A stretch of 64,000 bases of DNA, taken from sequence record PV730300.1; one strand, given 5' to 3'. How positions within the stretch are numbered: the first letter of the stretch is position 1; every line of letters begins with the position of its first letter. The notes under the pieces were generated by a model. That model did not search any database. It had not been told where the DNA came from and saw only the letters and a program-made list of their open reading frames with translations. The DNA is from a phage. Shown here in pieces: positions 43,524 through 62,295 of the stretch. The position numbers and the translations under genes are program-made.

Positions 43524-43530
43524 ACTTCAC

Positions 43531-46423: not shown

Positions 46424-46424
46424 T

Positions 46425-46946: not shown

Positions 46947-46978
46947 ATTTTGCCTCCTTTTTAAGTTAACGAATTTCT

Positions 46979-47007
46979 AGTATAACACGATAGAGGCTTT
47001 ATTGCAA
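46979..47007 (-). promoter_or_regulatory. Sigma70-like promoter candidate (TTGCAA-N17-TATACT) for the hydrolase gene
   Basis: On minus strand: -35 TTGCAA (47002-47007), 17-nt spacer, -10 TATACT (46979-46984); GC hairpin at about 47008-47028 upstream. Confidence 0.4.
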
Positions 47008-47046
47008 GAGGGGGGATTTCTCCCCCTCAAAATCATTTGTTAATTA

Positions 47047-47649
47047 TTATGGACATTCATACCATTCTTTTTTACCACCGAAGGCCATCACCACATCACA
47101 AATATCCAGACCAGCTTTACCTACACCATATGCTTTCAGCTTCCATTCCCCATCTTCACGAACCAAGGAAGCCACGTGGCAGATTGTGTTGCCAGCTACT
47201 TCAGGAGCCAGGAAGTCAAAATCCAGAATTTCCACATTGCGCTCGGAGTCGAAGATTTTAAGCATACCTTCAGAAGCATGACCAAAACGTTTCAGACCTG
47301 TATCATCATCAATGGTCAGGACAAAGGCAATCTCTTGTGCATCAGGAGAGATTTTAGCCAGAGTAATATCAATCTGCTCCATGCTGCCAGTTCCATCACG
47401 AACATCGTCACCAGCGAAGGTAGAACGTTCAGGATCAAACTTGTTAGCATAGCAAACCAGGTGACGTGCAGACAGCATTTCAGGATTGCCAGCGGCATTG
47501 TGACGACAAACCAGTGCACTTACATCCAGATCCAGTTTAGAATCAGATTTCCAAGAGAATTCCAGGCGCAGTTCTTTCAGAGCCGGAGCAACTTTCTTCA
47601 GGGAAATTTTTTCGCTAGAGCCTTTTTTCAGGGAAATTTTATCAGTCAT
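47047..47649 (-). CDS. TerD-family protein (tellurite resistance / stress response domain)
   Basis: ISLKKGSSEKISLKK N-terminus, AGDDVRDGTGSMEQ, EIAFVLTIDDDT and REDGEWKLKAYGVGKAGL align block by block with the Klebsiella TerD sequence as I recall it. Confidence 0.8.
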   Translation of the reverse strand: MTDKISLKKGSSEKISLKKVAPALKELRLEFSWKSDSKLDLDVSALVCRHNAAGNPEMLSARHLVCYANKFDPERSTFAGDDVRDGTGSMEQIDITLAKISPDAQEIAFVLTIDDDTGLKRFGHASEGMLKIFDSERNVEILDFDFLAPEVAGNTICHVASLVREDGEWKLKAYGVGKAGLDICDVVMAFGGKKEWYECP

Positions 47650-47664
47650 CTTTTGTCTCCTCTA

Positions 47665-47934
47665 TTATTTAAGTGTAATACCAGTTACAGTCAATTCTAC
47701 TTCCAAAAGCTTAGATGTGTTTTGGATTGATACTAATTGTGCATGATGGTTTAGTTCTACAGCAGAACAATCATTTTCCCCATCATCTACTTTTAAATAA
47801 ACAATGATTTCACTAAGGTCTAAACCATTTTCGTCAAATGCATTTTCATAGACGAAAGTATCTCCTACATCCAAATCTTTAATGGTAAGGCATCGTTTAT
47901 TTACTTTTTGCTCATCAATTTCGAAGTTTAACAC
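47665..47934 (-). CDS. Small protein, paralog of 48956..49300
   Basis: Shared blocks DLDVGDTFVY...GLD...VELTVTGITLK versus DLDVGATFMY...GLD...VDLEVTNITLKK. Confidence 0.4.
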   Translation of the reverse strand: MLNFEIDEQKVNKRCLTIKDLDVGDTFVYENAFDENGLDLSEIIVYLKVDDGENDCSAVELNHHAQLVSIQNTSKLLEVELTVTGITLK

Positions 47935-48163
47935 TTCTTCCTCCTAATGTTATCTCCGGTTTGTATATACGAAGAATTATAGCATTTTCATTTTCTTTGT
48001 CAACCCATTCTTCATAATCGGGCCATACATGAATCTCTACTCTACTTACAATATCTTCCATTCGCACAGTCCCAATGAAATACTCTTTGAGACTGCGTAT
48101 AATGAAAGCTTCTCTCTCGCGCCAATAATTTTCTATGACTTGAGAGGCAAGCTCGTCGATCAT
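47915..48163 (-). CDS. Hypothetical protein
   Basis: 82 aa ORF overlapping stop/start with neighbours. Confidence 0.35.
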   Translation of the reverse strand: MIDELASQVIENYWREREAFIIRSLKEYFIGTVRMEDIVSRVEIHVWPDYEEWVDKENENAIILRIYKPEITLGGRSVKLRN

Positions 48164-48954
48164 TTTTTAGCACCTACTTTAACAACCCACTCTCCGAACT
48201 CTTCAGATAAGAGTTTGTCATAAAGCTCTGAATCTGTCAAGTCTAAATCTTTAATGCCAATAAAACCAACATTATCATAAGCATTTGCCAGTTCTTTCAG
48301 GAAGCCAAACTTCTCATTACCAACGCCAACCATGAACCAATAGATAGGCTTATTCTTATTTTCTTCAATAAGACGACGAACAGCACTAGGATCACCATTC
48401 TCACCATCCGTCTGGAAGAATACAACACCAGGGGTAACGTCAGCACCTGGTTCAGATACAGCTACAACTTTTTCACGCTCTACAGACACTGTTTCAGTTT
48501 TACCAAGCAGACGATTAAAGAAGCCTTTCTTTGGAGCCTCCTCTTGTACCACTTGTTTAGTGGTAATATATTTAGTAACAGTGCCAAAATACTCATCGTA
48601 GATATCCGCCATTACAGGGGCGTAATTTGTTCCACCTCCGATACGAACATTACGCATACATTTACCAACATAGTCATCGTAAACATCTGCTGTTGCTGGA
48701 GTAAGCTCTTGGGAACTCGTATTGAAGGCCCACATATCAATTTGTTGATTATCGTCGAACAGCATACCAAAAGGAAGCAGTTTACCTACAAAATCACTCA
48801 CTACCCCACTAGAATATAGACCATGCATACTACCAGAAATATCTAGAGCACATGCTACACGAAGAACAATCTTACCTTCATTCAGGTTCTTATTCTTTTT
48901 CAGAGAGAAAGCAAGGTTTTCTTGACGTTTTTTCAGGCTGATTTTCTCGGACAT
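48160..48954 (-). CDS. von Willebrand factor A domain protein (TerF/TerY-like)
   Basis: MIDAS motif DISGSM plus GGGTNY; N-terminus KISLKK...FSLKK echoes the TerD N-terminal strand. Confidence 0.65.
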   Translation of the reverse strand: MSEKISLKKRQENLAFSLKKNKNLNEGKIVLRVACALDISGSMHGLYSSGVVSDFVGKLLPFGMLFDDNQQIDMWAFNTSSQELTPATADVYDDYVGKCMRNVRIGGGTNYAPVMADIYDEYFGTVTKYITTKQVVQEEAPKKGFFNRLLGKTETVSVEREKVVAVSEPGADVTPGVVFFQTDGENGDPSAVRRLIEENKNKPIYWFMVGVGNEKFGFLKELANAYDNVGFIGIKDLDLTDSELYDKLLSEEFGEWVVKVGAKK

Positions 48955-48955
48955 A

Positions 48956-49300
48956 TTATTTCTCCTTCTTAAGTGTAATATTGGTAACTTCTAAATCTAC
49001 TTCCACCATATTTGTATCTGGTGGGATGCAATGAGTATAGCCTCGTTGTGCTAGTGATCCATTAATACAAATCGCACTGTTTGTGGAATTTTTAATGAAC
49101 ACCAAGTTACGGTAGGTATCCAACCCTGCGTCTTCATAGGCATCATAATACATGAATGTGGCCCCTACGTCAAGATCTTCGAAAGCAATAGGTAAATCCT
49201 GACACTTTTCTTCTTGAATATTGAATCTAAACACGCATACCTCCTCTACCAATTTTGAAGCCCAAATCGTAAGCTTCCTTAGTGATCTTTTGTAACTCAC
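48956..49300 (-). CDS. Small protein, paralog of 47665..47934 (start uncertain)
   Basis: See paralog; listed start overlaps upstream gene, true start may be near 49234. Confidence 0.4.
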   Translation of the reverse strand: MSYKRSLRKLTIWASKLVEEVCVFRFNIQEEKCQDLPIAFEDLDVGATFMYYDAYEDAGLDTYRNLVFIKNSTNSAICINGSLAQRGYTHCIPPDTNMVEVDLEVTNITLKKEK

Positions 49301-49790
49301 TTATAGGAAGTGTTACAAGAGGATCATCTTCTTCAATTTCCATCTTGTCATCTTCTGTTTCAATGAGAGTATTATGCACTTTGTGATAAGGGTTGTCAAC
49401 ACGTTTAAACTTATTCTTTTCTGTGCTGAAAAAACAATCTGGATCTTCTTCACCATCACCCCAACCTTGATTAGGATCTCCGTCAGATTGTTCTGTAGGG
49501 ATTTCACCTGTAAAGTACTCTTCCAGCACCATAGCGATACCGTCCCTTGGATTTGAGGAATGCATTAAATCACAAACCTTACCCCAATCCATAGCCCATT
49601 CGAACCGTTCACGAACGCCATTTTCATCCTCCTTTCCAGAGAAAACACAACCATAACTATCATAGTTGCCATACATCTCTTCAATAACAGCACCGTCCTT
49701 CAAAAGAAAGAGATAACAAGGTGATCCGTCGAAAGAAGTAGAAAGGGCAGCTTTGCCCGATTCCTTACACAAAAAACTAAAACAACCCAT
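49227..49790 (-). CDS. Hypothetical acidic protein
   Basis: 187 aa ORF, Asp/Glu-rich C-terminal half. Confidence 0.4.
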   Translation of the reverse strand: MGCFSFLCKESGKAALSTSFDGSPCYLFLLKDGAVIEEMYGNYDSYGCVFSGKEDENGVRERFEWAMDWGKVCDLMHSSNPRDGIAMVLEEYFTGEIPTEQSDGDPNQGWGDGEEDPDCFFSTEKNKFKRVDNPYHKVHNTLIETEDDKMEIEEDDPLVTLPISELQKITKEAYDLGFKIGRGGMRV

Positions 49791-49993
49791 TACAAACCCT
49801 CCTTCAGATTATCAAGAGCTACAGTGGTTTCACAAAAGTCTCCATACGTTTTATGATGTTCCAGAAAAGCTTCGGGTCCACCCCAATCATTGTCTTGTGT
49901 ATTCCAGCCATCAATAAAAGCATCTTCAATGATTGTGATCAGTTCTTGTCGGGTTAACTGGATAATATTAGGGTCGTTATCGTAGTTAAACAT
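49790..49993 (-). CDS. Hypothetical small protein
   Basis: 67 aa ORF, start overlaps upstream stop. Confidence 0.3.
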   Translation of the reverse strand: MFNYDNDPNIIQLTRQELITIIEDAFIDGWNTQDNDWGGPEAFLEHHKTYGDFCETTVALDNLKEGL

Positions 49994-50158
49994 CCTCTTC
50001 CTCCTCTAAAATATGGAACCCGTAATTACAATAGTCCTGAAAGGTTTCGTGCGCAAGATCTTCTATATCCTCTTGAGACATATCATCTTCAATTTCGATA
50101 TCCACAACCTCATTGCATCCACACCAAGCAGTTTCAATACTCACTCGTAATATTTTCA

Positions 50159-50353
50159 TTACTCCTCCTCATTGAAGTCAATATCTGCAAGGAGTTGGAA
50201 TTTACGGAAGTTACGACAACCTTCATAAATATAACAATCACGACAAACTGCTAGAACACTTGGGGGATATATGCCTCCCATCGGTGCGAATCGTTTTTCG
50301 TCATCATAACGGACACCAATGTCTTCATCAATTATATAGATACGGATTCTCAT
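50159..50353 (-). CDS. Hypothetical small Cys-containing protein
   Basis: 64 aa ORF (CRDCYIYEGC). Confidence 0.3.
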   Translation of the reverse strand: MRIRIYIIDEDIGVRYDDEKRFAPMGGIYPPSVLAVCRDCYIYEGCRNFRKFQLLADIDFNEEE

Positions 50354-51462
50354 TTACCAAGCCCTCGTTTCACAGCAGCTACCATCCCGTCTTCCAGAGA
50401 TTGAACTTCATTAATATAATCAACACGAGCAGCACGGGCTTCCGTATTGATGCGGTTAGTTTCTTCCAACATCTTAACCAAGTTTTCCTGATCGTGACGC
50501 AGAGTTTCAATATCCAACACTTGACGGTTAGCCAGTGCTGCTGCTTCGATTTGATTCTGTGTGGCAAGATCGCTACCCAGTTTAATTGCCAGGTTAAATT
50601 CATCAAGAACGTTATTCTGCGTCTCTGCTGCTTTCATTTGACGTAAGCTTTCGATATACATTGAGAAGTTAGCAGAGTAAGCAGGAATAACATTATTTAC
50701 TATGTTACGCGCAGATCGCATTAAGCTTGCAGAAACTTTTTGCATACCTTGTACACGCGGTCCCATTTGGACACACAGTAGGCGCAATGCTTTTAAATCT
50801 GCAATACGAATCTCCAGAAGATCCAAAGTATCTCGGATCACTTGTCGCTGTTCTACTGCATCTTCTGGAAGAGCAGCCAAAACTTGTTCTTCTTTTTCAT
50901 AGGTTGCTGTTAGAAGCTGCATATCTCGGTTCAAACTTGCAGCATATTGTCCAATAGCTTGATGTAGCTTTTCAAGATATACCAAGGAATCTTCTTCTTT
51001 GCGAATATCCATTTGAAGGTTCTTTACCAACTCTTCAATACGGTTATTAACATTATCAAACTCCCCGAACAGGTCTTCTTTCATACCCATAACTTTTTTA
51101 ATGAGTTTAGTAATACCTTTGCTTTGTTTAATAGAGTTTGGATCAAGTTGTTTTGCCTGTTTAATCAAAGCTGTGAGTCGTTCACTCATCTGATCGCCTT
51201 GATTACTACGTTGATGTTTTAATACCTCGGCATTCAAGGAACGCAAGGTTGTTCCTGCCTCTGCCCCAATCTCTTCGATCTCTTGTCGGGTCATAGAAGG
51301 CAAAACTGGAACTTCTTGCGGTGCTGCTGGTGCGTAAACAGGACTGGCATCTAACACGCTTGGAGCGAATACAGATTTACTTGCATCTGTTGTTGCAGCG
51401 AATACACTCATTTCAGACTTCTTCTGACCACCAGTAGCTGCTTTTAAAAATGGACTTGTCAT
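50350..51462 (-). CDS. TelA-like toxic-anion-resistance family protein
   Basis: 370 aa, predominantly helical with long heptad-like segments; size and composition fit the TelA/KlaA/YceH family; clustered with TerD, vWA and TerC genes. Confidence 0.45.
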   Translation of the reverse strand: MTSPFLKAATGGQKKSEMSVFAATTDASKSVFAPSVLDASPVYAPAAPQEVPVLPSMTRQEIEEIGAEAGTTLRSLNAEVLKHQRSNQGDQMSERLTALIKQAKQLDPNSIKQSKGITKLIKKVMGMKEDLFGEFDNVNNRIEELVKNLQMDIRKEEDSLVYLEKLHQAIGQYAASLNRDMQLLTATYEKEEQVLAALPEDAVEQRQVIRDTLDLLEIRIADLKALRLLCVQMGPRVQGMQKVSASLMRSARNIVNNVIPAYSANFSMYIESLRQMKAAETQNNVLDEFNLAIKLGSDLATQNQIEAAALANRQVLDIETLRHDQENLVKMLEETNRINTEARAARVDYINEVQSLEDGMVAAVKRGLGK

Positions 51463-52049
51463 TCTTCATTCTCCTCTTCTGCATCTCTTATATATGGTGA
51501 AACACCGTACTCTTTAGCTACTTTAACCCAATCATCCCATTTATACAACCATAATTTTCCTTCAGTTCCTTCTTTATCTGATTTCAACCACATATTAGGT
51601 TGCTTGCCTGGATACATGCGATTAGGTTTACGATTATAACCTCTGACACATCTTGTCGCAAACCTATCTACCAGAACAAGAACATACTTATATTCGTGGT
51701 TCAACGGTTCTTTGGAAGTGGCTTTAGGATTAGCCCCTAATTCTGCTGCCAGTTTTTGCCAATGAGCACCGTGTCTACTAAATTTACCCATACAACCATC
51801 AATAGCATGAGCAATTTCGTGCTTCATTGTATCCACGATCATATCTCTTGTAGAGTTCTTATGCAAGTGCCAATTTACAACAACAATTTTATCTCGGTAG
51901 TTGCACCAACCGAAAGAGTTATTCACTTTGTTTCTAACACAAGCTTTATATCCTGCTTCACGTAACATGTTGTAGTAAACAGGAAAATCTTCTTTTATTT
52001 CCTGCATCACTTCCCACCACAAGAGTTGCAAGTCTCTCTCGGTATGCAT
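51459..52049 (-). CDS. SprT-like zinc metalloprotease domain protein
   Basis: HEIAHAIDG (HExxH) followed by His/Cys-rich segment GCMGKFSRHGAHW; stop overlaps TelA-like start. Confidence 0.5.
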   Translation of the reverse strand: MHTERDLQLLWWEVMQEIKEDFPVYYNMLREAGYKACVRNKVNNSFGWCNYRDKIVVVNWHLHKNSTRDMIVDTMKHEIAHAIDGCMGKFSRHGAHWQKLAAELGANPKATSKEPLNHEYKYVLVLVDRFATRCVRGYNRKPNRMYPGKQPNMWLKSDKEGTEGKLWLYKWDDWVKVAKEYGVSPYIRDAEEENEE

Positions 52050-52052
52050 AAC

Positions 52053-52646
52053 TTACACCTTAAAAGCGAAATACGTGGTCGTGGCTTCAAAATCAGGGCC
52101 AGATAAACTTGCACTGAAATCTGAAATATTTGTAATTAAAAAGCTTTTATGCATACCTAACACAGCCACGCTTTCAATATCTTCTACTAACATTTCAATC
52201 ATGTTAGAAACATGGCTGAACGTAGAGTTTTGTTTTTTGATGGTGTAGAAAGAAAGATTCCCACCTGCTGTATAAGATACCTCTTCAAAATCTTTAATCG
52301 TATATTGTGTGCCATCAGTAAAGAAAATGGTAGCTTTATTAGTAGCACGTTTCTTGTTTTTTGGTCCTTTTTTACGTTTACTGCGAGTAGGCAAACCGTT
52401 TGGAAATACCGTAGCTACAAATTCTTCAGGAGAAACCTCCTTACCGAAATCATAACCGTAAGAAACAGCGTCTATAAACTCGTCGTCTTCATTTTTAAAA
52501 TAATGAAAATAGGGCCAATTTGAGAGATTATCGAGCATCTTATGCTCATCCACAGCAGAGAACGTATCCCTCAAAGCACGTGTGATTTGTAAAGCATTAG
52601 GCAAACTTTTAACACCTGTAATGGAAGTACGAATAGAAATTGTCAT
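52053..52646 (-). CDS. Hypothetical protein
   Basis: 197 aa ORF with SD. Confidence 0.4.
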   Translation of the reverse strand: MTISIRTSITGVKSLPNALQITRALRDTFSAVDEHKMLDNLSNWPYFHYFKNEDDEFIDAVSYGYDFGKEVSPEEFVATVFPNGLPTRSKRKKGPKNKKRATNKATIFFTDGTQYTIKDFEEVSYTAGGNLSFYTIKKQNSTFSHVSNMIEMLVEDIESVAVLGMHKSFLITNISDFSASLSGPDFEATTTYFAFKV

Positions 52647-52660
52647 TGTTTTTCTCCTTA

Positions 52661-53098
52661 TTAACGTCGCTTGCTACGAGATGAACTCTTTTTACTTAAA
52701 GGGCTATTGTAAGATTTACGAGTTGTATAGCTACTATTTGTTTTAAAAGTTTGTCTCGGCTTTTCATAAGTTTTTATCTCTTGCTTAGGCTTACCATAAA
52801 AATTAGTTTTCGGTTTAGGTGTATTATAATGCTTATTAATAATCGTTCTGTTATCGTTATAATCCCCACTGTTACGATTACCACCACCACTCATCATATG
52901 CCCTAACAACATACCTGTAGCAAACTCACCAACACCGCTACTACTAGAACCGCCACCATTGTTGATAATAGTTGTATCTCCGTCAGATCCTTGTTGAGCG
53001 TATTGTTGAGGAGGTTGTTGGTATTGTGCAGGATTTGTTTCATCCTCGCAAGCTGTTAAAAAGATACAACCAATTAAAATCAGTGCTAGTTTTTTCAT
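52661..53098 (-). CDS. Lipoprotein (signal peptidase II lipobox), Gly/Ser-rich with basic C-terminus
   Basis: MKKLALILIGCIFLTAC with lipobox L-T-A-C; ATG at 53098 with AGGAAA SD; Gly-rich segment and Lys/Arg-rich tail. Confidence 0.5.
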   Translation of the reverse strand: MKKLALILIGCIFLTACEDETNPAQYQQPPQQYAQQGSDGDTTIINNGGGSSSSGVGEFATGMLLGHMMSGGGNRNSGDYNDNRTIINKHYNTPKPKTNFYGKPKQEIKTYEKPRQTFKTNSSYTTRKSYNSPLSKKSSSRSKRR

Positions 53099-53285
53099 AT
53101 TTGCTTTCCTCATTTTGACTATTAATACACCTGTGTTTGAAATCTCCAGAGAAGCAATAAAGTTGCTCTCCATCTCGGTATAAACTCACTTTACTGCCGT
53201 TGATTACGCTTGTCAATACAAAAATTACAACAAACAACCCTATTGCAAAACAAATATTTTCAAACACAACCAACAAGTATTTCAT
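53040..53285 (-). CDS. Small membrane protein (N-terminal TM helix)
   Basis: 81 aa; LLVVFENICFAIGLFVVIFVLTSVI; 3' end overlaps lipoprotein gene start in another frame. Confidence 0.35.
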   Translation of the reverse strand: MKYLLVVFENICFAIGLFVVIFVLTSVINGSKVSLYRDGEQLYCFSGDFKHRCINSQNEESKYEKTSTDFNWLYLFNSLRG

Positions 53286-53632
53286 TTTAAAAATACCTCA
53301 TCATCAGTTTCATTATCCCAGAAGAACAAATCCCAACCATTCGGATCATTCCATTTGGCTGCTGGAGAAGTCCATATTTGTTCGATATCAATATTCAAAA
53401 CTTCACCGTTTCGTTTTGAAACAGCTTTAGTTAATTCCCAACGAGATACAGGCTCTACTTCTCCTGAACCACTTCCACAACAAGCTACAACATTAGGAGG
53501 CAAATTAATTGGATCTTTGGTCACAATCATAACGCTTACCCCAGGGTAAACTTTTGAAAGATAATCTAAAACGTAATCCACATCACCAGATAAATCCCAA
53601 ATAAGTTCTTGAATTTCATCAAAATTATTCAT
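53282..53632 (-). CDS. Hypothetical acidic protein
   Basis: 116 aa ORF. Confidence 0.4.
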   Translation of the reverse strand: MNNFDEIQELIWDLSGDVDYVLDYLSKVYPGVSVMIVTKDPINLPPNVVACCGSGSGEVEPVSRWELTKAVSKRNGEVLNIDIEQIWTSPAAKWNDPNGWDLFFWDNETDDEVFLK

Positions 53633-53674
53633 AAGTCTCTCCTATAAAATAGCCTCCCGAAGGAGGCTCATCTA

Positions 53675-54649
53675 TTAAACAGCAGCTTCTTCTTTTTCAG
53701 GGAAGATAAAGCTTGCAATAACACCCAGAGCTAATGTGCCTAGAACAATCATCAGACTTACGTTAGGGGAAATATCATGCGGGAGGAATGACCACTTGGC
53801 ATGAAGTGTTTCACCGAACGGGTGATACATAAGTTTAGCACCAACAAACACCAGAACCACAGCAACAGCTTTCTCTAAGTGAACCAGATATTTCACAGCT
53901 ACACTCAACACAAAGAAAAGTGCACGTAAACCAAGAACAGCCATCAGCATTGCAGAATAAACTAGCAGAGGTTCTTGTGTCACACCGATCACAGCCGGAA
54001 CTGAATCAAAAGAGAAGACAATATCTGTAAGCTCAATAACAAACACACAAAGAAGAGCAGGAGTTGCATATTTAATACCATTCTTAATGGTGATGAACTT
54101 TTCACCATCCAGCGCATTGTGCACAGGCAGAACTTTACCTACTAAACGAACAGCCCAATGCTTAGAGTAATCAATATCCTCTTCTTCGTCACCACCTTTG
54201 ATGATAGCCACGGCAGACCAAGCTACAATCAAACCGAACAACACTTGGACCGACCAATGAAGGTTAAACAAAGCGGTCCCTGCTGCAACAAAAATACCTC
54301 GGAAGACAATGGCTCCTGCAATCCCCCAAAGTAAAATCTTATGTTGGAGATGTGTACTCTTAATTCCAAAGCTTGCAAAAATTGCCATGAACACCATCAG
54401 GTTATCTACAGAAAGACTCTTTTCCAACACATAGCCACTTAAGAAAAGCGCGGCAAACTCTTTACCATGTTCTACCCAAATGAATGCGTAATATCCTAAA
54501 GCTAAAGCAATCCAAAAAACAGACCAAAGCAAAGCAGATTTAATTCCAATTTCTTTATTCTCTTTATGACCAAAGAAATCGATACCAATAGACAATGCCA
54601 AAATACCAACTAAAACAACTACATCAATAATTGGGAAACCGAGTTGCAT
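53675..54649 (-). CDS. TerC-family integral membrane protein
   Basis: Multiple predicted TM helices and the TerC signature EKSLSVDNLMVF. Confidence 0.8.
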   Translation of the reverse strand: MQLGFPIIDVVVLVGILALSIGIDFFGHKENKEIGIKSALLWSVFWIALALGYYAFIWVEHGKEFAALFLSGYVLEKSLSVDNLMVFMAIFASFGIKSTHLQHKILLWGIAGAIVFRGIFVAAGTALFNLHWSVQVLFGLIVAWSAVAIIKGGDEEEDIDYSKHWAVRLVGKVLPVHNALDGEKFITIKNGIKYATPALLCVFVIELTDIVFSFDSVPAVIGVTQEPLLVYSAMLMAVLGLRALFFVLSVAVKYLVHLEKAVAVVLVFVGAKLMYHPFGETLHAKWSFLPHDISPNVSLMIVLGTLALGVIASFIFPEKEEAAV

Positions 54650-54728
54650 TCTTTTCTCCTCTCTTTGCGGGGAACTATTCCCCGCTTCATGTGATATATC
54701 TTACTCTTTTTAAGAACTGTGTCAACAC

Positions 54729-54950
54729 TTATTTTGTTGAATGAGAGGAAAAGATTCCTCGTAATACCGCCAGAATAAACGAAACACAAACCACGGTCCA
54801 GAAGGTTACTGGGACAGTGATATCTGCATGACCCATAACTTCAGCAACATAGTTGTAAGCCAGCAACAGTAACCAAGCTGGAATCAAACTAAGCATAAAA
54901 GCAATAACAAAAAAGCTTACCACTGCAACAATACCTGCAAAAACACCCAT
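54729..54950 (-). CDS. Small membrane protein (two predicted TM helices)
   Basis: 73 aa, almost entirely hydrophobic. Confidence 0.4.
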   Translation of the reverse strand: MGVFAGIVAVVSFFVIAFMLSLIPAWLLLLAYNYVAEVMGHADITVPVTFWTVVCVSFILAVLRGIFSSHSTK

Positions 54951-54962
54951 ACTAATCTCCTC

Positions 54963-55436
54963 TTAAAGTTTATAAATAGTTACATCGTGACCTGTTTTTA
55001 CTAAAGTTTCTTCAATCATCACTTGGATGATAGCCCAATTACCTCCAGCATATCCAGCGCCAATCATAGGTAAGCCGATCTTACATTTTTGGTCACGGAG
55101 AAGCAAATCATTAGCCATAGCTATTAGTGCATCGTAAAGTGCATCATAGTCCAACTGACGACCTTTAGCATTGTATCCGTAACGGTATTGCCCGTATAGA
55201 TTATATACCAAAGGGTCTGATTGTTCGTCTGGCACCCCTAAACTAAAAGAACCTAACTTACTTTGATCACCAGCCATTGTGTCTAAATCTGCCGCATATG
55301 CATAAGGGAATGCTCGTTTAATTTGCGGAGCAATTCCTGCTCCCATGTTACACATACAATTGCAACAATGAGCAATAACAGTTACTTCACCTGCTTTAGC
55401 GGCATCAATAAGATTACCTGTTTTCGTTTTAAGCAT
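54963..55436 (-). CDS. Macro domain protein (ADP-ribose binding / processing)
   Basis: VIAHCCNCMCNMGAGIAPQIKRAFP and IGLPMIGAGYAGGNW resemble the macro-domain Gly-rich ligand-binding loops. Confidence 0.5.
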   Translation of the reverse strand: MLKTKTGNLIDAAKAGEVTVIAHCCNCMCNMGAGIAPQIKRAFPYAYAADLDTMAGDQSKLGSFSLGVPDEQSDPLVYNLYGQYRYGYNAKGRQLDYDALYDALIAMANDLLLRDQKCKIGLPMIGAGYAGGNWAIIQVMIEETLVKTGHDVTIYKL

Positions 55437-55448
55437 TTTAGCTCCTTA

Positions 55449-56276
55449 TTACAGAATGTGTTGTTTTGTGTAACGATCCAAGAATTCAAAGTTTTCAGCA
55501 TACTTTGAAATTCGGTTGTAACCTTCTCCCAAGCATCCAAAGAAAAGTTGCTCTACATAGTAGTGTGGCAATTGACTAAGAATGATTTTGAAGTCTTCAT
55601 GATTTTGGCCCATAAGATATTTAATAGGACGAACAAGACACTGTGCATCACGTTCTTCATTAATCATTTTAACAAATGCTTCTGGTGTATTAATGTAGTT
55701 AAAATTCAGTTTAGCTTCGGTATCTGCTTGATTACCTTCATATTTTGCAAAATACAGGAAGTAAACATCATTTTTAACTTGATTTTCATCAAGAATCTCA
55801 ATCAGTTTGTCTTCATGCGTTCCAGTGATATTTACATCATCAATGAATACAAGCTTCTTATCACCCCAGAATTCTTTGTTGCAGTAGAATGTATCCCCAT
55901 CAATAAGTTTCTTACGACTAGCTTTATCCAAGAAACCATAATCGTTGATATAGCTAACTTTACGATGAATAATGTCCAGTTCTGCTGAACGACCTTGATC
56001 ATATTGTGATTGCAACATGTTAAAGTAATTAATAAAATGATCTGTCATCATTGTTGCAGCATTATGCACATGGTTGTAAGGAGAAGGAATGATAACAAAT
56101 TGTTCCCCAATATGTTTCATTGCCACTTGAGCAAAAAACTGAAGTGCCAATTCTTTACCCATACGACGCGCGGCTTGGTTACTACCAAATTTCAATTTTG
56201 AATAATCTTGGATATCAAAAGTAGCAGTTTCCAGGTCATCAAATTTATTTGCAAAAATTTGAGTTTGATTACGCAT
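55449..56276 (-). CDS. Type I phosphoribosyltransferase-like protein
   Basis: PRPP-binding-type motif KKLVFIDDVNITGTHE (hydrophobic run, DD, then TGxT); not similar by eye to Prs N-terminus. Confidence 0.5.
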   Translation of the reverse strand: MRNQTQIFANKFDDLETATFDIQDYSKLKFGSNQAARRMGKELALQFFAQVAMKHIGEQFVIIPSPYNHVHNAATMMTDHFINYFNMLQSQYDQGRSAELDIIHRKVSYINDYGFLDKASRKKLIDGDTFYCNKEFWGDKKLVFIDDVNITGTHEDKLIEILDENQVKNDVYFLYFAKYEGNQADTEAKLNFNYINTPEAFVKMINEERDAQCLVRPIKYLMGQNHEDFKIILSQLPHYYVEQLFFGCLGEGYNRISKYAENFEFLDRYTKQHIL

Positions 56277-56925
56277 TTACAATTTCTCCTCTTTTAAGTT
56301 TCTCTAGTAAGTCGTTAGGGTTCTTAATATGACAGAAGTTAAATCCTAAGTCAACACATTTTCCATCATATTCTTCACTATCGCCTACGTGCAATACTTC
56401 GTGCCCTAACAGAGGGATCGGAGAATACGTGAGCGTGCGAGCAAAGAATCGCGGATCTGGTTTACAAAGTAAAGCTTCATCCGAGAAATGGGTGAACTCA
56501 AAACAATTCCAACTATCAAACTTACAAGCACGACGCAGGATATCCCCTGATATAAAGTTGGTATTGCTCTTAATACTCAAATCATAACGTCCCGAAAGAT
56601 ACAGCAAGTACATCGGCAGATCCACGGCTACGTGTGGTGGAAACTTAAGGAACCACTGTTCACACTCAAAACGAAGCTTTGCAGACTTCCAAGGCGTTAT
56701 CCCAAGTTCAGAACCAAGTCTTTCCCAGGCGTATGCTGCACACTCGGCTTTGCCTTGAAGTGCTGCATTATCCAGTTCCTTTTTGATCTTCTTATAAGCT
56801 GCTCTTGCTTCCACTTCTGTAATATCTCCATATTTTGCGATAGTCCAGGCTCGCATATCTGCGTAATTGGAGTTTGCTGTGATCAGTGTGTTCCATACAT
56901 CAAAAGAGATATGTTTAATAGTCAT
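56269..56925 (-). CDS. HAD-superfamily hydrolase with non-canonical motif I
   Basis: Motif I FDVWNTL (Asp nucleophile but Trp at D+2, as in DxYGT dehalogenase-type), motif II SIKSNT, motif III CKPDP, motif IV VGDSEEYD. Confidence 0.5.
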   Translation of the reverse strand: MTIKHISFDVWNTLITANSNYADMRAWTIAKYGDITEVEARAAYKKIKKELDNAALQGKAECAAYAWERLGSELGITPWKSAKLRFECEQWFLKFPPHVAVDLPMYLLYLSGRYDLSIKSNTNFISGDILRRACKFDSWNCFEFTHFSDEALLCKPDPRFFARTLTYSPIPLLGHEVLHVGDSEEYDGKCVDLGFNFCHIKNPNDLLEKLKRGEIVNA

Positions 56926-56926
56926 A

Positions 56927-57532
56927 TTAAGCCCACCATGCGTCTAAGTTAAGATTACTGTCCACTACCACTTGTTCTATGTGGTAGCCTTTTATCTGTA
57001 TCCCACTGTTCAAGAGCATATCATACGCTTCATTGAAACGCAACTTATCTTCTGCGGAATATAAGCGAGCATTATAAAATCGGTAATCAATTTCTTCAGC
57101 ATTAGAAGAAATACGGAAGAAGTTTGTTTCTACTTCGGGGTCACTTGCTGAAGTCTTAATGTGAACTTCTCCGTAATTTTCTTTACTTAGATCCATGAAA
57201 AGAACACAGGCAACATGTTTAAACATTCGTTCCAGTTTGTAACGAACAACATTGAAACCTGCATTCTCAAGTTTTTCTACACACTGCAACATTAAAGTAG
57301 TGTCGAGATCGCTTTGATACTTTGTTAACATACGATCACGTTGAGACTTTGTATCCCGATGTAAATCAATTGTTGTGCATTTGGCACCAATAATCTTAGC
57401 TGCTTTCATCAACTCTTCAGAACTAACGTTAGATAAAGTAAGATGAAAATGGGCTTTCCACACTTTTTTAGCAGGGACACCAAAAGATTTATCCCCACTA
57501 TTCGGCATGTTGACTACTACACTATGTTGCAT
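56927..57532 (-). CDS. Hypothetical protein (possible degenerate 2H-phosphoesterase-like, weak)
   Basis: 201 aa; one H-x-T-x motif (HFHLTL) and a second imperfect one (VHIKTSAS). Confidence 0.35.
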   Translation of the reverse strand: MQHSVVVNMPNSGDKSFGVPAKKVWKAHFHLTLSNVSSEELMKAAKIIGAKCTTIDLHRDTKSQRDRMLTKYQSDLDTTLMLQCVEKLENAGFNVVRYKLERMFKHVACVLFMDLSKENYGEVHIKTSASDPEVETNFFRISSNAEEIDYRFYNARLYSAEDKLRFNEAYDMLLNSGIQIKGYHIEQVVVDSNLNLDAWWA

Positions 57533-57547
57533 TACTTATCTCCTCAC

Positions 57548-57739
57548 TTAAAATGGAAGTCTTTGAAGTTCATCTCCTCCGATATCAAGTAATTTAGCAA
57601 CATCTTGATCAGAAAGCAACTCTTTTCTTTGTAAAATATCTACAAGGGTTGCAAGAATGTCCTTAACGTCCCGATCACTGTTCTTCAAAAGTTCTCCTGC
57701 CGTCCCTACTCTATCTCCTACAGCAAAATATGTAACCAT
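57548..57739 (-). CDS. Hypothetical small protein
   Basis: Likely starts at internal ATG (MVTYFAV...) to avoid overlap with nrdG. Confidence 0.3.
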   Translation of the reverse strand: MVTYFAVGDRVGTAGELLKNSDRDVKDILATLVDILQRKELLSDQDVAKLLDIGGDELQRLPF

Positions 57740-57752
57740 GAAACCTCCTAAG

Positions 57753-58223
57753 TTAATCTGATTGCCAACCACTTGCCGTTTTGGTCCATAATCTTTGATT
57801 ATCTGACCCTCTGAAAGGTTTTGTAGTTGGATTGTTTATTTCATACTTTCCGTCTACAATAATGTCAACAAGATTTTTAATATACAAAGGCACTTCCTCA
57901 AAAGTATATCCTGTATACACCATTATATCTTTGCTTGACCCATAAACATCTCTAACCTTTTCTATAAGGTTTTTAACATTGTAAATATTCTGCGGATCTA
58001 ATGGCTCTCCTCCTAAAATTGTTAAACCTTTTACAAACGGTCTTGACAAATCTTTTAAAACTTGCTCTACATTTTCGTGAGTAAACGGTTTCCCATAAGA
58101 ATAAGACCAGGCTTTTTGGTTAAAACAGCCACGACAACCGTGGCTACAACCACTAACCCAGAGGGAGCACCTAACTCCCTCACCATTAATAAGATCTACA
58201 GGTTCGTATCCTGCAAAATTCAA
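57753..58223 (-). CDS. nrdG: Anaerobic ribonucleoside-triphosphate reductase activating protein
   Basis: Radical-SAM cluster motif CSHGCRGC; overlaps stop of nrdD. Confidence 0.8.
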   Translation of the reverse strand: MNFAGYEPVDLINGEGVRCSLWVSGCSHGCRGCFNQKAWSYSYGKPFTHENVEQVLKDLSRPFVKGLTILGGEPLDPQNIYNVKNLIEKVRDVYGSSKDIMVYTGYTFEEVPLYIKNLVDIIVDGKYEINNPTTKPFRGSDNQRLWTKTASGWQSD

Positions 58224-60046
58224 AAATGTTTCTCCCTTTGCAAAACTTCCTGCATTTTACCTTTGTTATAAGGCCGTGAATTAGGGGCAGAAAGATACCC
58301 TGATACACGTCTAACTACAGAAATAGTTTCTTCTTCATGGTTGCCACAATCAGGACACTCAAACCCTTTAGCCGTTGCCTTAAATTCCCCATGAAAACCA
58401 CACTTAAAGCATTGATCCACGGGCTGATTAATACCAAAATAGTGAATATGTTCATAAGCGTAGTCTACTAAAGTCTCCAAAGCTTCTAAGTTATTCTTTA
58501 AGTTTGGTGTTTCGACATAACTTATGTTACCACCATTACTAATCTGTGCAAAACCTGCTTCATAATCCCATTTTTCAAAAGGATTTGTTACCAACCATAC
58601 AGGTTGATGAAAAGAGTTAGTAAGATAGTCTCTTTCTACCAAACCTGGGTATTTTTCATTTAAAGCTGTTGCAAACTTATAGCACAAAGATTCTGCTGGA
58701 GTTCCATAGAGACTAAACGCCAAATTAGATCGTTCTTTAAACACAGCACACACATCTTTCATATGTTGCAGAATGTTTTTACCAAGTTCCTTTTTATCTT
58801 TTTCTTCTGGATAAAGGATTTCCAAAGCTTCGGCAAGACCTACATAACCAATACTAATAGAAGCATAACCACCTTCAAACAAAACACCAATTTCATCGTT
58901 GGCATTTAAACGCGCTAAAGCCCCTTCCATGAAAAGAATAGGGTTTTCAGATGCTTTGGTATGTCTGATACGGTTTACACGTAGCATGTGAGCATCGTAG
59001 GCTATCTCCATATGTTTATTAAGAAGATCGGTGAAAGATTCTCCTTTACTTCTCGCTTCCGCAGCGATCAGAGGTAAGTTGATAGAAACTACTCCAAGGT
59101 TGAATCGTCCATCGTATTTTTCTCCTTGTTCGGTGGCATAGTGAGAAAGGAAGCTTCTGCAACCCATGCTTGTAACCTTGCCATCTGAAGATCCTGTGAC
59201 TTCCATGTTCAGTGGAACAGAGATGAAATCAGGGTAAATCCTTTCTGCACAACATTCCATTGCCAGTTGCTTGAGATCGTAATTCGGGTCACCCGGTTTC
59301 ATATTCACCCCGTCTTTCAGGAAGAACACGACTTTCGGGAATACTGGGGTCACGCGATCCTTCCCAAGACCTCCTGTATGAACCTTTAAATAGTTCTTAG
59401 TGATCATTCGTCCAAAAACAGAGGTGTCCAAGCCGAGGCTGATAGTGATGAATGGTGATTGACCATTCACACTCATCAAGGTATTAACTTGATACAGAAG
59501 TGTTTGCATTGCGTCATAAACAAGACTGTCCACCACTTCCATCGCCCTTTTCTCTAAGTCCTCTGTATTAGGACCACGATAATTTTTGCTGAGATTATTA
59601 AAGATTTTGTTGTAGCTTTTTTCTACGTATTGTTTTAATCCCTCGTCAATATGCGCACAAGTCTGTCCACCATACTGGCTCGATGCTACAGCTTGGATGA
59701 TTTGAGTTAGCACTGTGGTAGCTACTCCAATAGATTTTGGTTTTTCTATCTGTGCAGCACCGATCTTAAAACCATTTTCTAACATATCTTGGTAATTAAC
59801 AAGACAACAGTTTGTAAGAGGAGAGAGCAGATAATCCAAGTCGTGAATATGTCCAAAACCTTCTGTATGCCATTCTGACAAGTTTTTTGGCAGTATCTGT
59901 GTCATTGCCATATGTTTGCTTAAAATCCCCGCCAAGAGATCCCTGTGTGTGTTAACGAGGTGGGAAGGTTTGTTTGCATTCTCTCTAGTGTATGTTTCTG
60001 AAGTGCGATCTAAAAAAGAAAAAACATCTTGGTACAAATCTTTCAT
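58220..60046 (-). CDS. nrdD: Anaerobic ribonucleoside-triphosphate reductase
   Basis: 608 aa; C-terminal zinc ribbon (CFKCG...CPDCG) and glycyl-radical motif RRVSGYL. Confidence 0.85.
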   Translation of the reverse strand: MKDLYQDVFSFLDRTSETYTRENANKPSHLVNTHRDLLAGILSKHMAMTQILPKNLSEWHTEGFGHIHDLDYLLSPLTNCCLVNYQDMLENGFKIGAAQIEKPKSIGVATTVLTQIIQAVASSQYGGQTCAHIDEGLKQYVEKSYNKIFNNLSKNYRGPNTEDLEKRAMEVVDSLVYDAMQTLLYQVNTLMSVNGQSPFITISLGLDTSVFGRMITKNYLKVHTGGLGKDRVTPVFPKVVFFLKDGVNMKPGDPNYDLKQLAMECCAERIYPDFISVPLNMEVTGSSDGKVTSMGCRSFLSHYATEQGEKYDGRFNLGVVSINLPLIAAEARSKGESFTDLLNKHMEIAYDAHMLRVNRIRHTKASENPILFMEGALARLNANDEIGVLFEGGYASISIGYVGLAEALEILYPEEKDKKELGKNILQHMKDVCAVFKERSNLAFSLYGTPAESLCYKFATALNEKYPGLVERDYLTNSFHQPVWLVTNPFEKWDYEAGFAQISNGGNISYVETPNLKNNLEALETLVDYAYEHIHYFGINQPVDQCFKCGFHGEFKATAKGFECPDCGNHEEETISVVRRVSGYLSAPNSRPYNKGKMQEVLQREKHF

Positions 60047-60114
60047 TATTAATCCTTATTTTGTGAGTAGAACTATTATTCTACCTCTTCCAACCGAAAA
60101 AAGCTTTGAGGAAA

Positions 60115-60140
60115 ATCAAAAAAGGCGCAAAGTGCGCCTT
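60115..60140 (-). terminator. Rho-independent terminator (minus strand), likely bidirectional
   Basis: ggcgca/tgcgcc hairpin flanked by A6 upstream and tttaagtttt downstream on plus strand (T6 on minus). Confidence 0.55.
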
Positions 60141-60146
60141 TAAGTT

Positions 60147-61496
60147 TTATCGTTTGGAGAGGAATTGTCTTCCCATGATCTTACCGTTCTTTACAGCGGT
60201 CCCATCGTGTCCATTATAATCCCAAGTTCCATCAATGTTACGCAAGAAGCTATCACGAACAGTGTAGGCTTTACCGTTCTCTACTTTACTTTCTTCAACA
60301 ATGATTGCCATAACAAGCTTATTTTCAATTTCGGTAGTAACCGATTCTTTAATACCCTCTGTAACTTCACGATCATATTGGATATAAACTCGCTCCTCGG
60401 TCACTTGCACGTCTACCACATTTTTAAATGTGTATGTCTGCTGTGTAGTGTAAAGGACACGAACAACACTCTTCTTACCTACTGGCGGCTTCTTACGAGG
60501 CTTACGGTAACGTGGAGACGGGTTAAGTTTAATATAGCCTACAATGTCTGATCCATCTCCAGAGTGGCTCCAATAAAGTGTCTCTGCCAACAAACCTTTT
60601 CCTTGGTCCCCATTTCGAAAAAGAACATCAACAGGACCATCACAAGGGCGTTTACCTCCGATGTGGGCTTGGTATTTTGCTGTTCTTGGGAGAACAAAAT
60701 ATTCTTCAATCTGCCATTCACTATCGTATTTCTCCCATTCAAAGTGGTTGGCTTTGCATACTTCTAAAACACCATTTTTGTAACGGACTTGAACAAAGTC
60801 CTCACAAGGTTGAATACCTGTATTAGGAATATAGGTAGGCTCTGTGTCTTCTGGTTCAAAAGTCTTTTTTTGTTGTTCCACATCTTCCACTTTTCTTACA
60901 TGCTTAGTATAAAACATATCTTTAAACTCCTGTGCTTCAACCTCAACTGCAAATTCATGTTCTCTGACCGCCGGAGGCACAAGACTTCCACACTCAAGAT
61001 GTAGAGCATCCAGACCTGCCATTTTATCGTAAAAGATAACTTTTCGATACTTCTTACCGTCTTCTGGAATAGCAGGGTCTACTCGTTTAAGACGGGAAGC
61101 ATCGCTTTTAGTCCAAAAACTCTTCCCTGTTGTATTATTGAAAGTAGTAATCATTTCTCCAATTTCTTCTTCAGAAAGGTTACTAGTGTCTGTGTAAACA
61201 TCTTCAATTTTTAGCATTTTAGTTTTCTTAAAAATTAAATCTAGCATTGCATCTCCTGTAAAACGTAGTTCATTATCTCCTACTGTCGGCTCTCCATTAA
61301 ATTCATCGGTCCCGACTGTGTGACAGATGTATGGAAAATTTGTGCAACCGTGTAAAAGAGCATATTGTCCTGTAAGTTTAGGATCTGTCTCTTTAGTCCA
61401 ACCATATGCAATCTCAATAGCTTTGCAAAGCCTATCGAACAAGCCCCGATTGTTTGCCGCTGTTACCAAATCTTGCTTATGTGCATATACATTCAT
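60147..61496 (-). CDS. Hypothetical protein
   Basis: 449 aa ORF, no motif recognised. Confidence 0.45.
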   Translation of the reverse strand: MNVYAHKQDLVTAANNRGLFDRLCKAIEIAYGWTKETDPKLTGQYALLHGCTNFPYICHTVGTDEFNGEPTVGDNELRFTGDAMLDLIFKKTKMLKIEDVYTDTSNLSEEEIGEMITTFNNTTGKSFWTKSDASRLKRVDPAIPEDGKKYRKVIFYDKMAGLDALHLECGSLVPPAVREHEFAVEVEAQEFKDMFYTKHVRKVEDVEQQKKTFEPEDTEPTYIPNTGIQPCEDFVQVRYKNGVLEVCKANHFEWEKYDSEWQIEEYFVLPRTAKYQAHIGGKRPCDGPVDVLFRNGDQGKGLLAETLYWSHSGDGSDIVGYIKLNPSPRYRKPRKKPPVGKKSVVRVLYTTQQTYTFKNVVDVQVTEERVYIQYDREVTEGIKESVTTEIENKLVMAIIVEESKVENGKAYTVRDSFLRNIDGTWDYNGHDGTAVKNGKIMGRQFLSKR

Positions 61497-62047
61497 AATA
61501 ACCCTCCTCGTTTTATTGCAATAGATGCCCTAGGCTCTGCGATACCAGTGGCGTATAAATATGGATGACCTTGTGGAGAAGTTCTCATCCCAAACGAACC
61601 TAATTCTAACCCATACATATCTTCCACGTCAAGACCAATATCTGTCTCTATGATTTGAGTTTGAACTTTGTAATACGTCCAAAAGAAATAGCGCATAGTT
61701 TCGGCATATTCTTTGACGGACGCTCCTGGATAAAACTCAATAATTTCCAACTTTAAGAAAATGTTAAAATGAGCATCATCCAATTCTTCTTCTGTTCGGT
61801 AGCAAGGTGTTAGAGCCATATAAGGATGATCTGTTGAAAATTCAAACCCATCTTTCTCCATCTGGAGGAAAGACTGCTCTGCACTGGCTACGTAGAACTT
61901 ACCATTAGGATGCCCCAAGGGGCGATCCTCTTTACCTTCTGGTAATGTATATGCAAGGATATCCGCATCTACAAGATAAGGGACTTCCAACATCTCCGCA
62001 AATCGCCCGTAGTAATCAATAGCTTGAGCAATAACAGCTACGTTCAT
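61493..62047 (-). CDS. Hypothetical protein
   Basis: 184 aa ORF overlapping stop/start with both neighbours. Confidence 0.4.
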   Translation of the reverse strand: MNVAVIAQAIDYYGRFAEMLEVPYLVDADILAYTLPEGKEDRPLGHPNGKFYVASAEQSFLQMEKDGFEFSTDHPYMALTPCYRTEEELDDAHFNIFLKLEIIEFYPGASVKEYAETMRYFFWTYYKVQTQIIETDIGLDVEDMYGLELGSFGMRTSPQGHPYLYATGIAEPRASIAIKRGGLL

Positions 62048-62295
62048 GATCTTCCTCCTGTGCGGAAAGCGCGTTTAGTAATGTTGGACATAATGATTAA
62101 ATCTTGTAAAGTCATATCTGGGAACTGTTGTTCTAAAACTCCCTCAACAGCACCTATAATATCTGACAATTCAACAAGTTGCATTATTTTGCAATCCTGC
62201 GCAACAGCATCAAAAAGTTCTTCTACTTCCTCTTTAATCTTTTCTATGCTGCCGTAAGGTTGTTTCTTAATGTCTGTTATGTGATACCCTGCCAT
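62044..62295 (-). CDS. MazG-like nucleotide pyrophosphohydrolase (small all-helical type)
   Basis: 83 aa; acidic helix pattern IEKIKEEVEELFDAV...LVELSDIIGAV resembles the MazG/HisE-type EExxE...ExxD signature. Confidence 0.4.
   Translation of the reverse strand: MAGYHITDIKKQPYGSIEKIKEEVEELFDAVAQDCKIMQLVELSDIIGAVEGVLEQQFPDMTLQDLIIMSNITKRAFRTGGRS

Follow-up and report, generated by a model that had tools for sequence, protein, structure and literature searches.

Positions 54963-57532 of the phage sequence record PV730300.1, analysed within a stretch of 64,000 nucleotides (the window), raise the question of whether four closely packed genes between TerC and the anaerobic ribonucleotide reductase genes NrdDG encode one nucleotide-metabolite pathway, as an earlier interpretation made from the letters of the DNA (the sequence-only reading) had proposed, or are neighbors with separate roles. 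The interval is filled by exactly four consecutive minus-strand open reading frames (ORFs), which encode a macro domain protein, a type I phosphoribosyltransferase (PRTase) of the PRTase_3 family, a HAD-fold hydrolase and a protein termed here ORF4; their number and location between the two flanks (Table 1) are as had been proposed. Profile and structure searches gave domain support for the macro, PRTase and HAD proteins and none for ORF4 as the degenerate 2H phosphoesterase that had been suspected. On balance, the region appears to hold three separate things within one gene array, namely a HAD-PRTase_3 pair belonging to a Ter system, the macro gene, and ORF4.

The window originates from a Phapecoctavirus, a phAPEC8-like coliphage. 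In the phage-record search, positions 53600-58300 showed 99.3% identity to Escherichia phage EF1-1 and 95-99% to dozens of Phapecoctavirus genomes, phAPEC8 among them, and at least 80% of the block query was contained in 69 phage records. Each of the four proteins has a PHROG match (E-values of 1e-55 to 1e-161), and the conservation of the ORF block is far beyond chance.

The conserved unit of the block

Homologs of the PRTase, with 36-66% identity, were identified in 157 of 50,697 phage records. They are carried by Stephanstirmvirinae, Klebsiella phages, the jumbo phage XaC1, T4-like Rhizobium phages and giant Caulobacter and Brevundimonas siphophages. Among the 15 plasmid matches listed (two further records are unlisted), PRTase_3 is confined to rhizobial and Hymenobacter plasmids, and none of these matches is an IncHI2-type ter plasmid. 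A HAD gene lies directly 5' of PRTase_3 in all 14 IMG/VR loci, and it was found immediately upstream, usually overlapping, in every jumbo, T4-like, Rhizobium and Caulobacter phage locus examined; the same order occurs on Sinorhizobium and Rhizobium plasmids. HAD followed by PRTase_3 is the sole conserved unit of the block. The macro gene and ORF4 are lineage-specific neighbors with other distributions, and the proposal of a three- or four-gene pathway was not borne out.

Two loci of the pair differ in their details. On a Rhizobium leguminosarum plasmid (L014, 8731-9984) the HAD partner is annotated as a 417-aa protein with a low-complexity N-terminal extension of ~200 aa, and its start may have been mis-called. 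In a T4-like metagenomic phage contig (L004, 8967-11168) the pair is followed by DUF2828/DUF7788 (TROVE-like vWA) and 2H-SAK proteins in place of Ter genes, and is flanked by an RNA ligase upstream and a CCA-adding-type enzyme downstream; from this context, the pair may be able to join more than one kind of vWA-containing system. The pair is also present in the related phage Bas62 (JohannJBalmer, Justusliebigvirus; locus L010), which belongs to the BASEL collection.

A single Ter-linked pathway in which ORF4, HAD, PRTase_3 and the macro protein all work on one nucleoside-like metabolite is unlikely, even though gaps of only -8 to +15 nt separate the four genes, the consensus scan gave no terminator-like site inside the block, the order HAD-PRTase-macro-73aa-TerC is common to Phapecoctavirus and Justusliebigvirus, and ORF4-HAD-PRTase is kept in Phapecoctavirus and in more distant relatives (L016-L018) whose PRTases are 63-79% identical. 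Outside Stephanstirmvirinae, ORF4 is found within 10 kb of the pair in none of nine viral loci and a macro gene in one, at a distance of 7 kb; further pair loci outside this subfamily (L003, L004, L011-L014) are without ORF4 or macro, and in L009 over 10 kb separate the ORF4 homolog from the nearest pair gene. The phyletic patterns diverge as well, with macro homologs in 2,935 phage records against the 157 for PRTase_3. ORF4 is absent from its block position in Justusliebigvirus, where an AAA protein replaces it, and is present in phages of Rheinheimera, which is not among the genera named in the PRTase_3 tally (seven further genera of this tally are unlisted). Bacterial relatives of ORF4, in turn, pair with AbiEii rather than with Ter, PRTase or HAD genes.

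Association of the pair with Ter genes

Since the 1990s, Ter genes have been tied to resistance against tellurite, colicin and phages. The HAD-PRTase_3 pair forms the upstream end of a phage Ter region of ~10.5 kb, in which the TerD, vWA-TerF-like, TelA and TerC genes lie at 47.0-54.6 kb, and PF15610, the family of the PRTase, was reportedly defined from Ter neighborhoods. Homologs of the vWA-TerF-like protein adjoin the pair in unrelated phage contigs, and in five of the nine viral loci outside Stephanstirmvirinae TelA, vWA-TerF and TerD, with or without TerC, are located directly around it. TerD homologs were identified in 146 phage records of the same set, and their genus tallies nearly match those of PRTase_3 (TerD and PRTase_3, respectively: Escherichia, 106 and 105; Brevundimonas, 7 and 7; Caulobacter, 4 and 4), with the exception that no Rhizobium phage is named in the TerD tally. 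The connection to Ter systems suggested by the sequence-only reading thus stands for the PRTase and HAD, by virtue of PF15610 and the four Ter-type genes in the window, and is unlikely for the macro protein and ORF4.

In 2012, Anantharaman, Iyer and Aravind reportedly described a Ter-associated biosynthetic module consisting of PRTases, a HAD phosphoesterase, an ATP-grasp enzyme and a TIM-barrel lyase. Among the ORFs scanned at 40.5-57.8 kb of the window, no ATP-grasp, TIM-barrel lyase, second PRTase, TerB or TerY was detected, and the phage Ter module is an abbreviated version of the full bacterial one. Phage Ter systems with PRTase and HAD were already described by Iyer et al. 2021 (PMC7824862, section 3.4.10), so that the term "candidate novel pathway" used previously was an overstatement. 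In the same work the nucleoside-like metabolite of the Ter PRTase and HAD enzymes is a prediction. For the role of phage Ter systems, the hypothesis in print is superinfecting-phage exclusion or stress tolerance. The HAD/PRTase_3 Ter module is known at the level of comparative genomics and uncharacterized, and our literature search found no experimental work on the Ter PRTase/HAD enzymes or their metabolite.

The two enzymes of the pair

The PRTase matches PF15610 (PRTase_3) with an E-value of 2.2e-41 and 142.5 bits (cutoff 28.7) over 256 of 264 profile positions. It has a type I PRTase fold with a loop for binding phosphoribosyl pyrophosphate (PRPP), in which an acidic pair is followed by T-G; the loop string VFIDDVNITGTHE is present, and residues D146, D147, T151, G152 and H154 are invariant in both PRTase_3 alignments (15 and 22 sequences). 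The assignment of a PRPP-binding loop to this protein was therefore correct. Other invariant motifs of the family are YSxLKFG, PSPYNxxxNAAT, HRKxSYxxDYG and DDVxITGxHE, and a C-terminal helical domain of ~90 residues is located at about residues 198-273. The type I PRTase with the fold closest to the model is ComF, and the other neighbors are purine and pyrimidine type I PRTases. A sequence search of the PDB with PRTase_3 returned no homolog, just chance PDZ matches. In many GenBank records the protein is called "putative orotate phosphoribosyltransferase", and Pfam searches gave no sequence match to the Pribosyltran or OPRT families.

The HAD gene overlaps the start of PRTase_3 by 8 nt. Its product scores 21.2 bits against PF00702, under the cutoff of 26.4, and a bacterial (plasmid) ortholog passes with 47 bits. 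A full-length alignment was obtained with PDB 2om6 (E 7.6e-5), which shares the FDVWNTL motif, and a partial match with TIGR02252 (REG-2-like). All four HAD motifs are kept in the nine aligned orthologs, comprising D10, the S/T of S[IL]xSN[TS], the K of KP, and LH[VI]GDx3D. The second Asp of motif I, two residues after the nucleophile (Asp+2) and expected in HAD phosphatases, is absent; as previously noticed in the single sequence, Trp takes its place, and this was seen in nine of nine aligned HAD partners from phages and plasmids down to ~30% identity. Judged from this alignment, Trp is a hallmark of the family and not an accident. In HAD phosphatases Asp+2 acts as the general acid/base; other residues occupy this position in dehalogenases, phosphonatase and P-type ATPases. 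A Trp that is found throughout the family therefore argues against a routine 5'-nucleotidase step, and the aligned sequences cast doubt on a HAD phosphatase step from nucleotide to nucleoside.

Three alternatives to a biosynthetic, Ter-linked role of the PRTase were considered. It is rather improbable that PRTase_3 is not biosynthetic at all and that it serves, with HAD as an accessory, in ComF-like nucleic-acid handling or as a defence effector consuming PRPP or nucleotides. The nearest fold is indeed that of ComF; however, the invariance of the acidic pair and TG in the PRPP loop is a sign of real PRPP chemistry, a Pfam scan of the PRTase revealed neither a zinc-finger nor a nuclease domain, and the carriers of the pair are lytic phages and plasmids, with no toxin/antitoxin-type partner gene recurring at the phage and plasmid loci examined. 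The association with Ter genes, too, fits a role in small-molecule metabolism. An ordinary nucleotide salvage enzyme that supplies deoxynucleoside triphosphates together with the adjacent NrdDG is still less probable. Besides the missing Pribosyltran, OPRT and PDB sequence matches and the closeness to ComF, the C-terminal helical domain and the first three of the above motifs are unlike those of such enzymes, an obligate HAD partner would undo nucleotide synthesis, and the distribution follows that of TerD. Finally, salvage of nicotinamide adenine dinucleotide (NAD) or processing of free ADP-ribose by a macro/PRTase/phosphoesterase set against NAD-depleting defences, similar to NARP and offered as an option by the sequence-only reading, is very improbable: macro domains do bind ADP-ribose-type ligands and an NMNAT/NUDIX gene lies ~250 bp 3' of the pair in one Rhizobium phage locus, but the PRTase has no Nampt/NAPRTase-type family match and its fold neighbors are ComF and purine/pyrimidine enzymes, the block genes as a whole gave no Prs-like, NMNAT or Nampt/Namat-type match in Pfam and NCBIfam, the phyletic coupling is to TerD and not to NAD genes, and the macro gene is not co-conserved with the pair.

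The macro gene

The macro domain that had been recognized in the first gene of the interval was confirmed by PF01661 (23.3 bits, cutoff 22; E 6e-5), phrog_335 (E 5.6e-55) and PDB 5e3b, the structure of SCO6735 (E 5e-13), with additional matches to TARG1 and 5m31. DarG models are matched in their macro part only (NCBIfam, E 2e-8; PADLOC, E 3e-10). By sequence, the protein is a member of the SCO6735/TARG1/DarG branch. Its phage homologs include proteins of T4-like phages annotated as tk.4, and it is only in Stephanstirmvirinae that the gene adjoins the pair. In Bas62 the macro protein is 244 aa long and its gene overlaps the PRTase gene. Such a distribution and these family relationships suggest that the macro protein is probably an independent ADP-ribose eraser outside the pathway of the pair.

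The catalytic residues K84 and D125 of TARG1 align to Gln and Ala in the macro protein, as they do in SCO6735 and BT1257. A DarG2-like macro protein of a chimallivirus, AdfM, counters DarTG2, and the catalytic residues are N22/K80 in DarG2 and N23/K78 in AdfM (PMC13309987). Taken through the TARG1 alignment, the catalytic Lys position of DarG2 and AdfM is probably not conserved in the macro protein. By analogy, AdfM may serve as a functional precedent for this gene and not as proof.

ORF4 as a putative orphan antitoxin

ORF4 has no match in Pfam, including the Pfam AbiEi families, or in NCBIfam, and its residues 1-22 are predicted to be disordered. As a 2H phosphoesterase it was rejected, with no Pfam match, no match to the 2H fold and not the two H-x-T/S motifs of that superfamily. 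Two alignments were built, one of 20 close homologs and one of 40 family-wide members. H30-x-T32 and E122-x-H124 are invariant in both and K126 in the close set only, and the family-wide invariants are H30, T32, K51, M68, R97, K99, E101, E122, H124, S142, E186, D191, D197 and W200. As motifs, this set reads H-x-T, K, R-x-K-x-E, E-x-H, S and E...D...D-x-x-W. No solved structure could be matched confidently to the family. A profile search gave 256 clusters, some with members fused to NUDIX, HD_4, Ham1 or HTH domains.

The family is linked to AbiE systems by several observations. ORF4 matches the PADLOC AbiEi models PDLC02277 (E 4.7e-13) and PDLC02279 (E 4.4e-12), the former being matched by all 40 sampled family members with a best E-value of 3.7e-55. 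On a Deinococcus plasmid, a family member overlaps a downstream PF08843 AbiEii gene by 4 nt; this homolog scores 76.9 bits against the family-wide profile, through which alone the link is made, as the direct comparison with the close ORF4 set is weak (hhalign, E 0.006) or without a match (hmmsearch). Representative bacterial genomes, scanned with a five-sequence sub-alignment, contained 49 ORF4-family loci in cyanobacteria, actinomycetes, myxobacteria and Lysobacter, and AbiEii is the downstream or fused ORF in 30 of the 37 loci that could be scored. There is no AbiEii-like ORF in the 64-kb window, so that the phage ORF4 is an orphan, and a search of plasmids with a phage-type query gave no match to ORF4-like proteins.

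Two distant phage members of the family were noted for their neighbors. One gene (L007, 10001-11021) overlaps that of Acb1, an anti-CBASS phosphodiesterase, and the other (L029, 6001-7187) overlaps a gene for an Rv2179c-like 3'-5' exoribonuclease, which suggests small anti-defence gene clusters. In Bas62 (L010, 6785-7945), the region of the Phapecoctavirus ORF4 holds a gene for a 386-aa AAA/STAND-like ATPase upstream of HAD, with two small ORFs between them.

ORF4 is best read, by comparison with known counter-defence genes, as an orphan antitoxin-like gene. The experimental precedent is AdfN, an orphan DarG1-like NADAR antitoxin of T-even phages (PMC11825919), and roles for ORF4 and the macro protein drawn from this parallel would be by analogy. 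A more specific possibility, which we put forward tentatively, is that ORF4 could be the first phage factor to counter defence by AbiE/MenT-type nucleotidyltransferase toxins, from an undescribed family of enzyme-like antitoxins that would reverse or destroy the nucleotidyl product rather than bind DNA. Reversal of the product is considered because of the NUDIX, HD_4 and Ham1 fusions and the Acb1 and Rv2179c-like neighbors of related phage proteins. No published description of a link between the ORF4 family and AbiEii was found in the literature, and the antitoxin-family reading appears to be new.

Proposed roles and points against them

From the domain identities, folds, gene order and co-occurrence observed, we infer the following activities and phenotypes. 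PRTase_3 would join PRPP to a nucleophile or base to give a ribosyl-5'-phosphate compound, and the HAD partner would process this product or its precursor, by a chemistry that may differ from a phosphatase step. The product of the pair would act on or through the membrane-associated set of TerD, TerC, TelA and vWA proteins during infection. The macro protein, encoded by a widespread and independent accessory gene, would most likely remove ADP-ribose from a macromolecule or ADP-ribose derivative. ORF4 would most likely neutralize an AbiEii-type abortive-infection toxin of the host or reverse its product. The macro protein and ORF4 probably help the phage to evade host defences.

Several points weigh against this explanation. 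The counts of Ter co-occurrence are dominated by one phage subfamily, and four of the nine other viral loci carry the pair without detectable Ter genes nearby. No nearby Ter genes were found at the pair in the T4-like contig, one Rhizobium phage locus and the two rhizobial plasmid loci examined. Being found without them, the pair can function independently of Ter. The HAD protein is without the catalytic Asp+2, which makes the assumed dephosphorylation uncertain, and, to our knowledge, ComF, the nearest structure of PRTase_3, has no demonstrated PRTase activity. The macro protein is without the catalytic Lys of TARG1. The bacterial homologs behind the antitoxin reading are only 22-30% identical to ORF4, and their pairings with AbiEii come from bacteria other than E. 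coli. Moreover, the tight, terminator-free packing of genes from NrdD to the gene of the 73-aa membrane protein fits co-expression of all four block genes, and with co-expression compatible a functional link among them is possible.

Gene array and neighboring genes

Table 1. Positions of the block genes, their flanking genes and the Ter genes in the window.
Feature	Coordinates	Strand	Remarks
TerD-domain protein	47047..47649	-	PF02342, E 3.2e-28; distal end of the Ter region
vWA-TerF-like protein	48160..48954	-	PF10138, E 1.6e-37
TelA, toxic anion resistance family	50350..51462	-	PF05816, E 6.9e-33; phrog_5890, E 3.7e-139
TerC/Alx-type membrane protein	53675..54649	-	PF03741, E 3e-40; TIGR03718 Alx subfamily, E 2.6e-95, above cutoff
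Predicted membrane protein, 73 aa	54729..54950	-	phrog_16065, E 6e-43
Stand-alone macro domain protein, SCO6735/BT1257 type, T4 Tk.4-like, 157 aa	54963..55436	-	
PRTase_3, ComF-like type I phosphoribosyltransferase, 275 aa	55449..56276	-	PF15610; second gene of the pair
HAD-fold hydrolase, 218 aa	56269..56925	-	Motif I H[IV]SFD[VF]W[NK]TL; first gene of the pair
ORF4, orphan member of "AbiEi"-labelled family, 201 aa	56927..57532	-	
ORF between NrdG and ORF4, 74 aa	57548..57772	-	phrog_17780, E 3.4e-39
NrdG and NrdD, anaerobic ribonucleotide reductase	57753..60046	-	Upstream flank of the same array; so annotated in all related records

Every gene from ~34 kb onward in the window is encoded on the minus strand. 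In the gene array the intergenic gaps are -20 to +15 nt, and the consensus scan revealed no terminator-like site from NrdD to the gene of the 73-aa protein. The latter is always located 3' of the macro gene in Stephanstirmvirinae, its position being kept in L010 and L015-L019, and the 74-aa ORF upstream of the block is kept in both Phapecoctavirus and Justusliebigvirus. The same scan gave TerC a promoter-like site of its own (54725-54698) and a strong terminator-like hairpin (53668-53651); the annotation of phage ASO2A has a promoter and terminators in matching positions around TerC. No Rfam match was found in 46000-60500, including the riboswitch class that controls bacterial Alx.

Two other minus-strand genes were noted within the Ter region. 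Positions 52661-53173 encode a predicted lipoprotein, with the likely start MKKLALILIGCIFLTAC and the lipobox LTAC followed by a Gly/Ser/Asn-rich tail, which is kept in Justusliebigvirus and could be a surface-exclusion factor. At 51459-52049, a gene that overlaps the start of TelA encodes a protein with an SprT-like zinc-protease domain (PF10263, E 4e-9) and is present in Phapecoctavirus and some relatives.

Upstream of NrdD, three minus-strand genes are located at 60147-62295. They encode a 449-aa protein labelled "ribonucleotide reductase" in EF1-1 from the PHROG name only, a fragment-like class II tRNA-synthetase homolog of 184 aa, which is the second gene upstream of NrdD, and, judged by eye, a MazG-like protein of 83 aa. 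On the minus strand at 42579-45151, three glycosyltransferase-like genes in tandem (314, 315 and 227 aa) may hint at sugar modification of DNA or envelope, the 227-aa protein having a weak match to TET-associated glycosyltransferases (TAGT; E 1.2e-3). In GenBank, several "Campylobacter phage" records and one "Acinetobacter phage" record show ~98% identity to genomes of E. coli Phapecoctavirus or Justusliebigvirus phages, and these are probably host mislabels or contaminants.

Implications

This phage group has the smallest natural version of a Ter system, with one PRTase_3 and one HAD beside TerC, TerD, TelA and vWA proteins, and because E. coli phages are easily handled the question of the Ter metabolite becomes directly testable. 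The presence of Trp at Asp+2 in all aligned HAD proteins of the pair means that the accepted scheme of a PRTase followed by a phosphatase may be wrong in its second step. The macro protein and ORF4 fit the recently established pattern of lytic phages carrying orphan antitoxin-like enzymes, and the ORF4 family, if our reading of it is true, would add AbiE-type toxins to the defences that phages disarm.

Comparison with known systems

The pair resembles the Ter module of the 2012 and 2021 studies in its PF15610 PRTase, its adjacent HAD and a neighborhood of TerD, TerC, TelA and vWA-TerF-like genes. Carriage by a virulent phage is likewise a shared trait, which was noted for jumbo "and certain other related smaller tailed phages" (PMC7824862). 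Unlike the full module, only one PRTase and a HAD are present here. The HAD, in which Trp is always found at Asp+2, may not be a usual phosphoesterase like that of the Ter module, and the pair occurs without Ter as well. ComF/ComFC (PDB 7p0h) and PRTase_3 share just 9% identity, and PRTase_3 differs from them in that no N-terminal zinc-finger region was detected, and in its extra C-terminal helical domain and obligate HAD partner.

Like AdfM/DarG2, TARG1, SCO6735 and T4 Tk.4, the macro protein represents the TARG1/DarG/SCO6735 branch, here as a stand-alone phage domain; unlike DarG, it is without the DarT-binding C-terminal domain. Features of ORF4 reminiscent of the 2H phosphoesterases LigT and Acb1 are an H-x-T lying on a beta strand and another His, both of them invariant. 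Its family further resembles AbiE (AbiEi/AbiEii) and MenAT, as it matches the PADLOC AbiEi models and its bacterial members are located directly upstream of, or fused to, PF08843 toxins. Canonical AbiEi is a winged helix-turn-helix protein that belongs to the Pfam AbiEi families, whereas ORF4 is without the N-terminal winged helix-turn-helix, has a predicted alpha+beta fold modelled as two ferredoxin-like halves, and has enzyme-like invariant polar residues; and, in contrast to AbiE loci, the phage carries no toxin partner for it. As a toxin-less antitoxin homolog that would act as counter-defence in a lytic phage, ORF4 is comparable to AdfN, from which it differs in both its fold and its toxin family.

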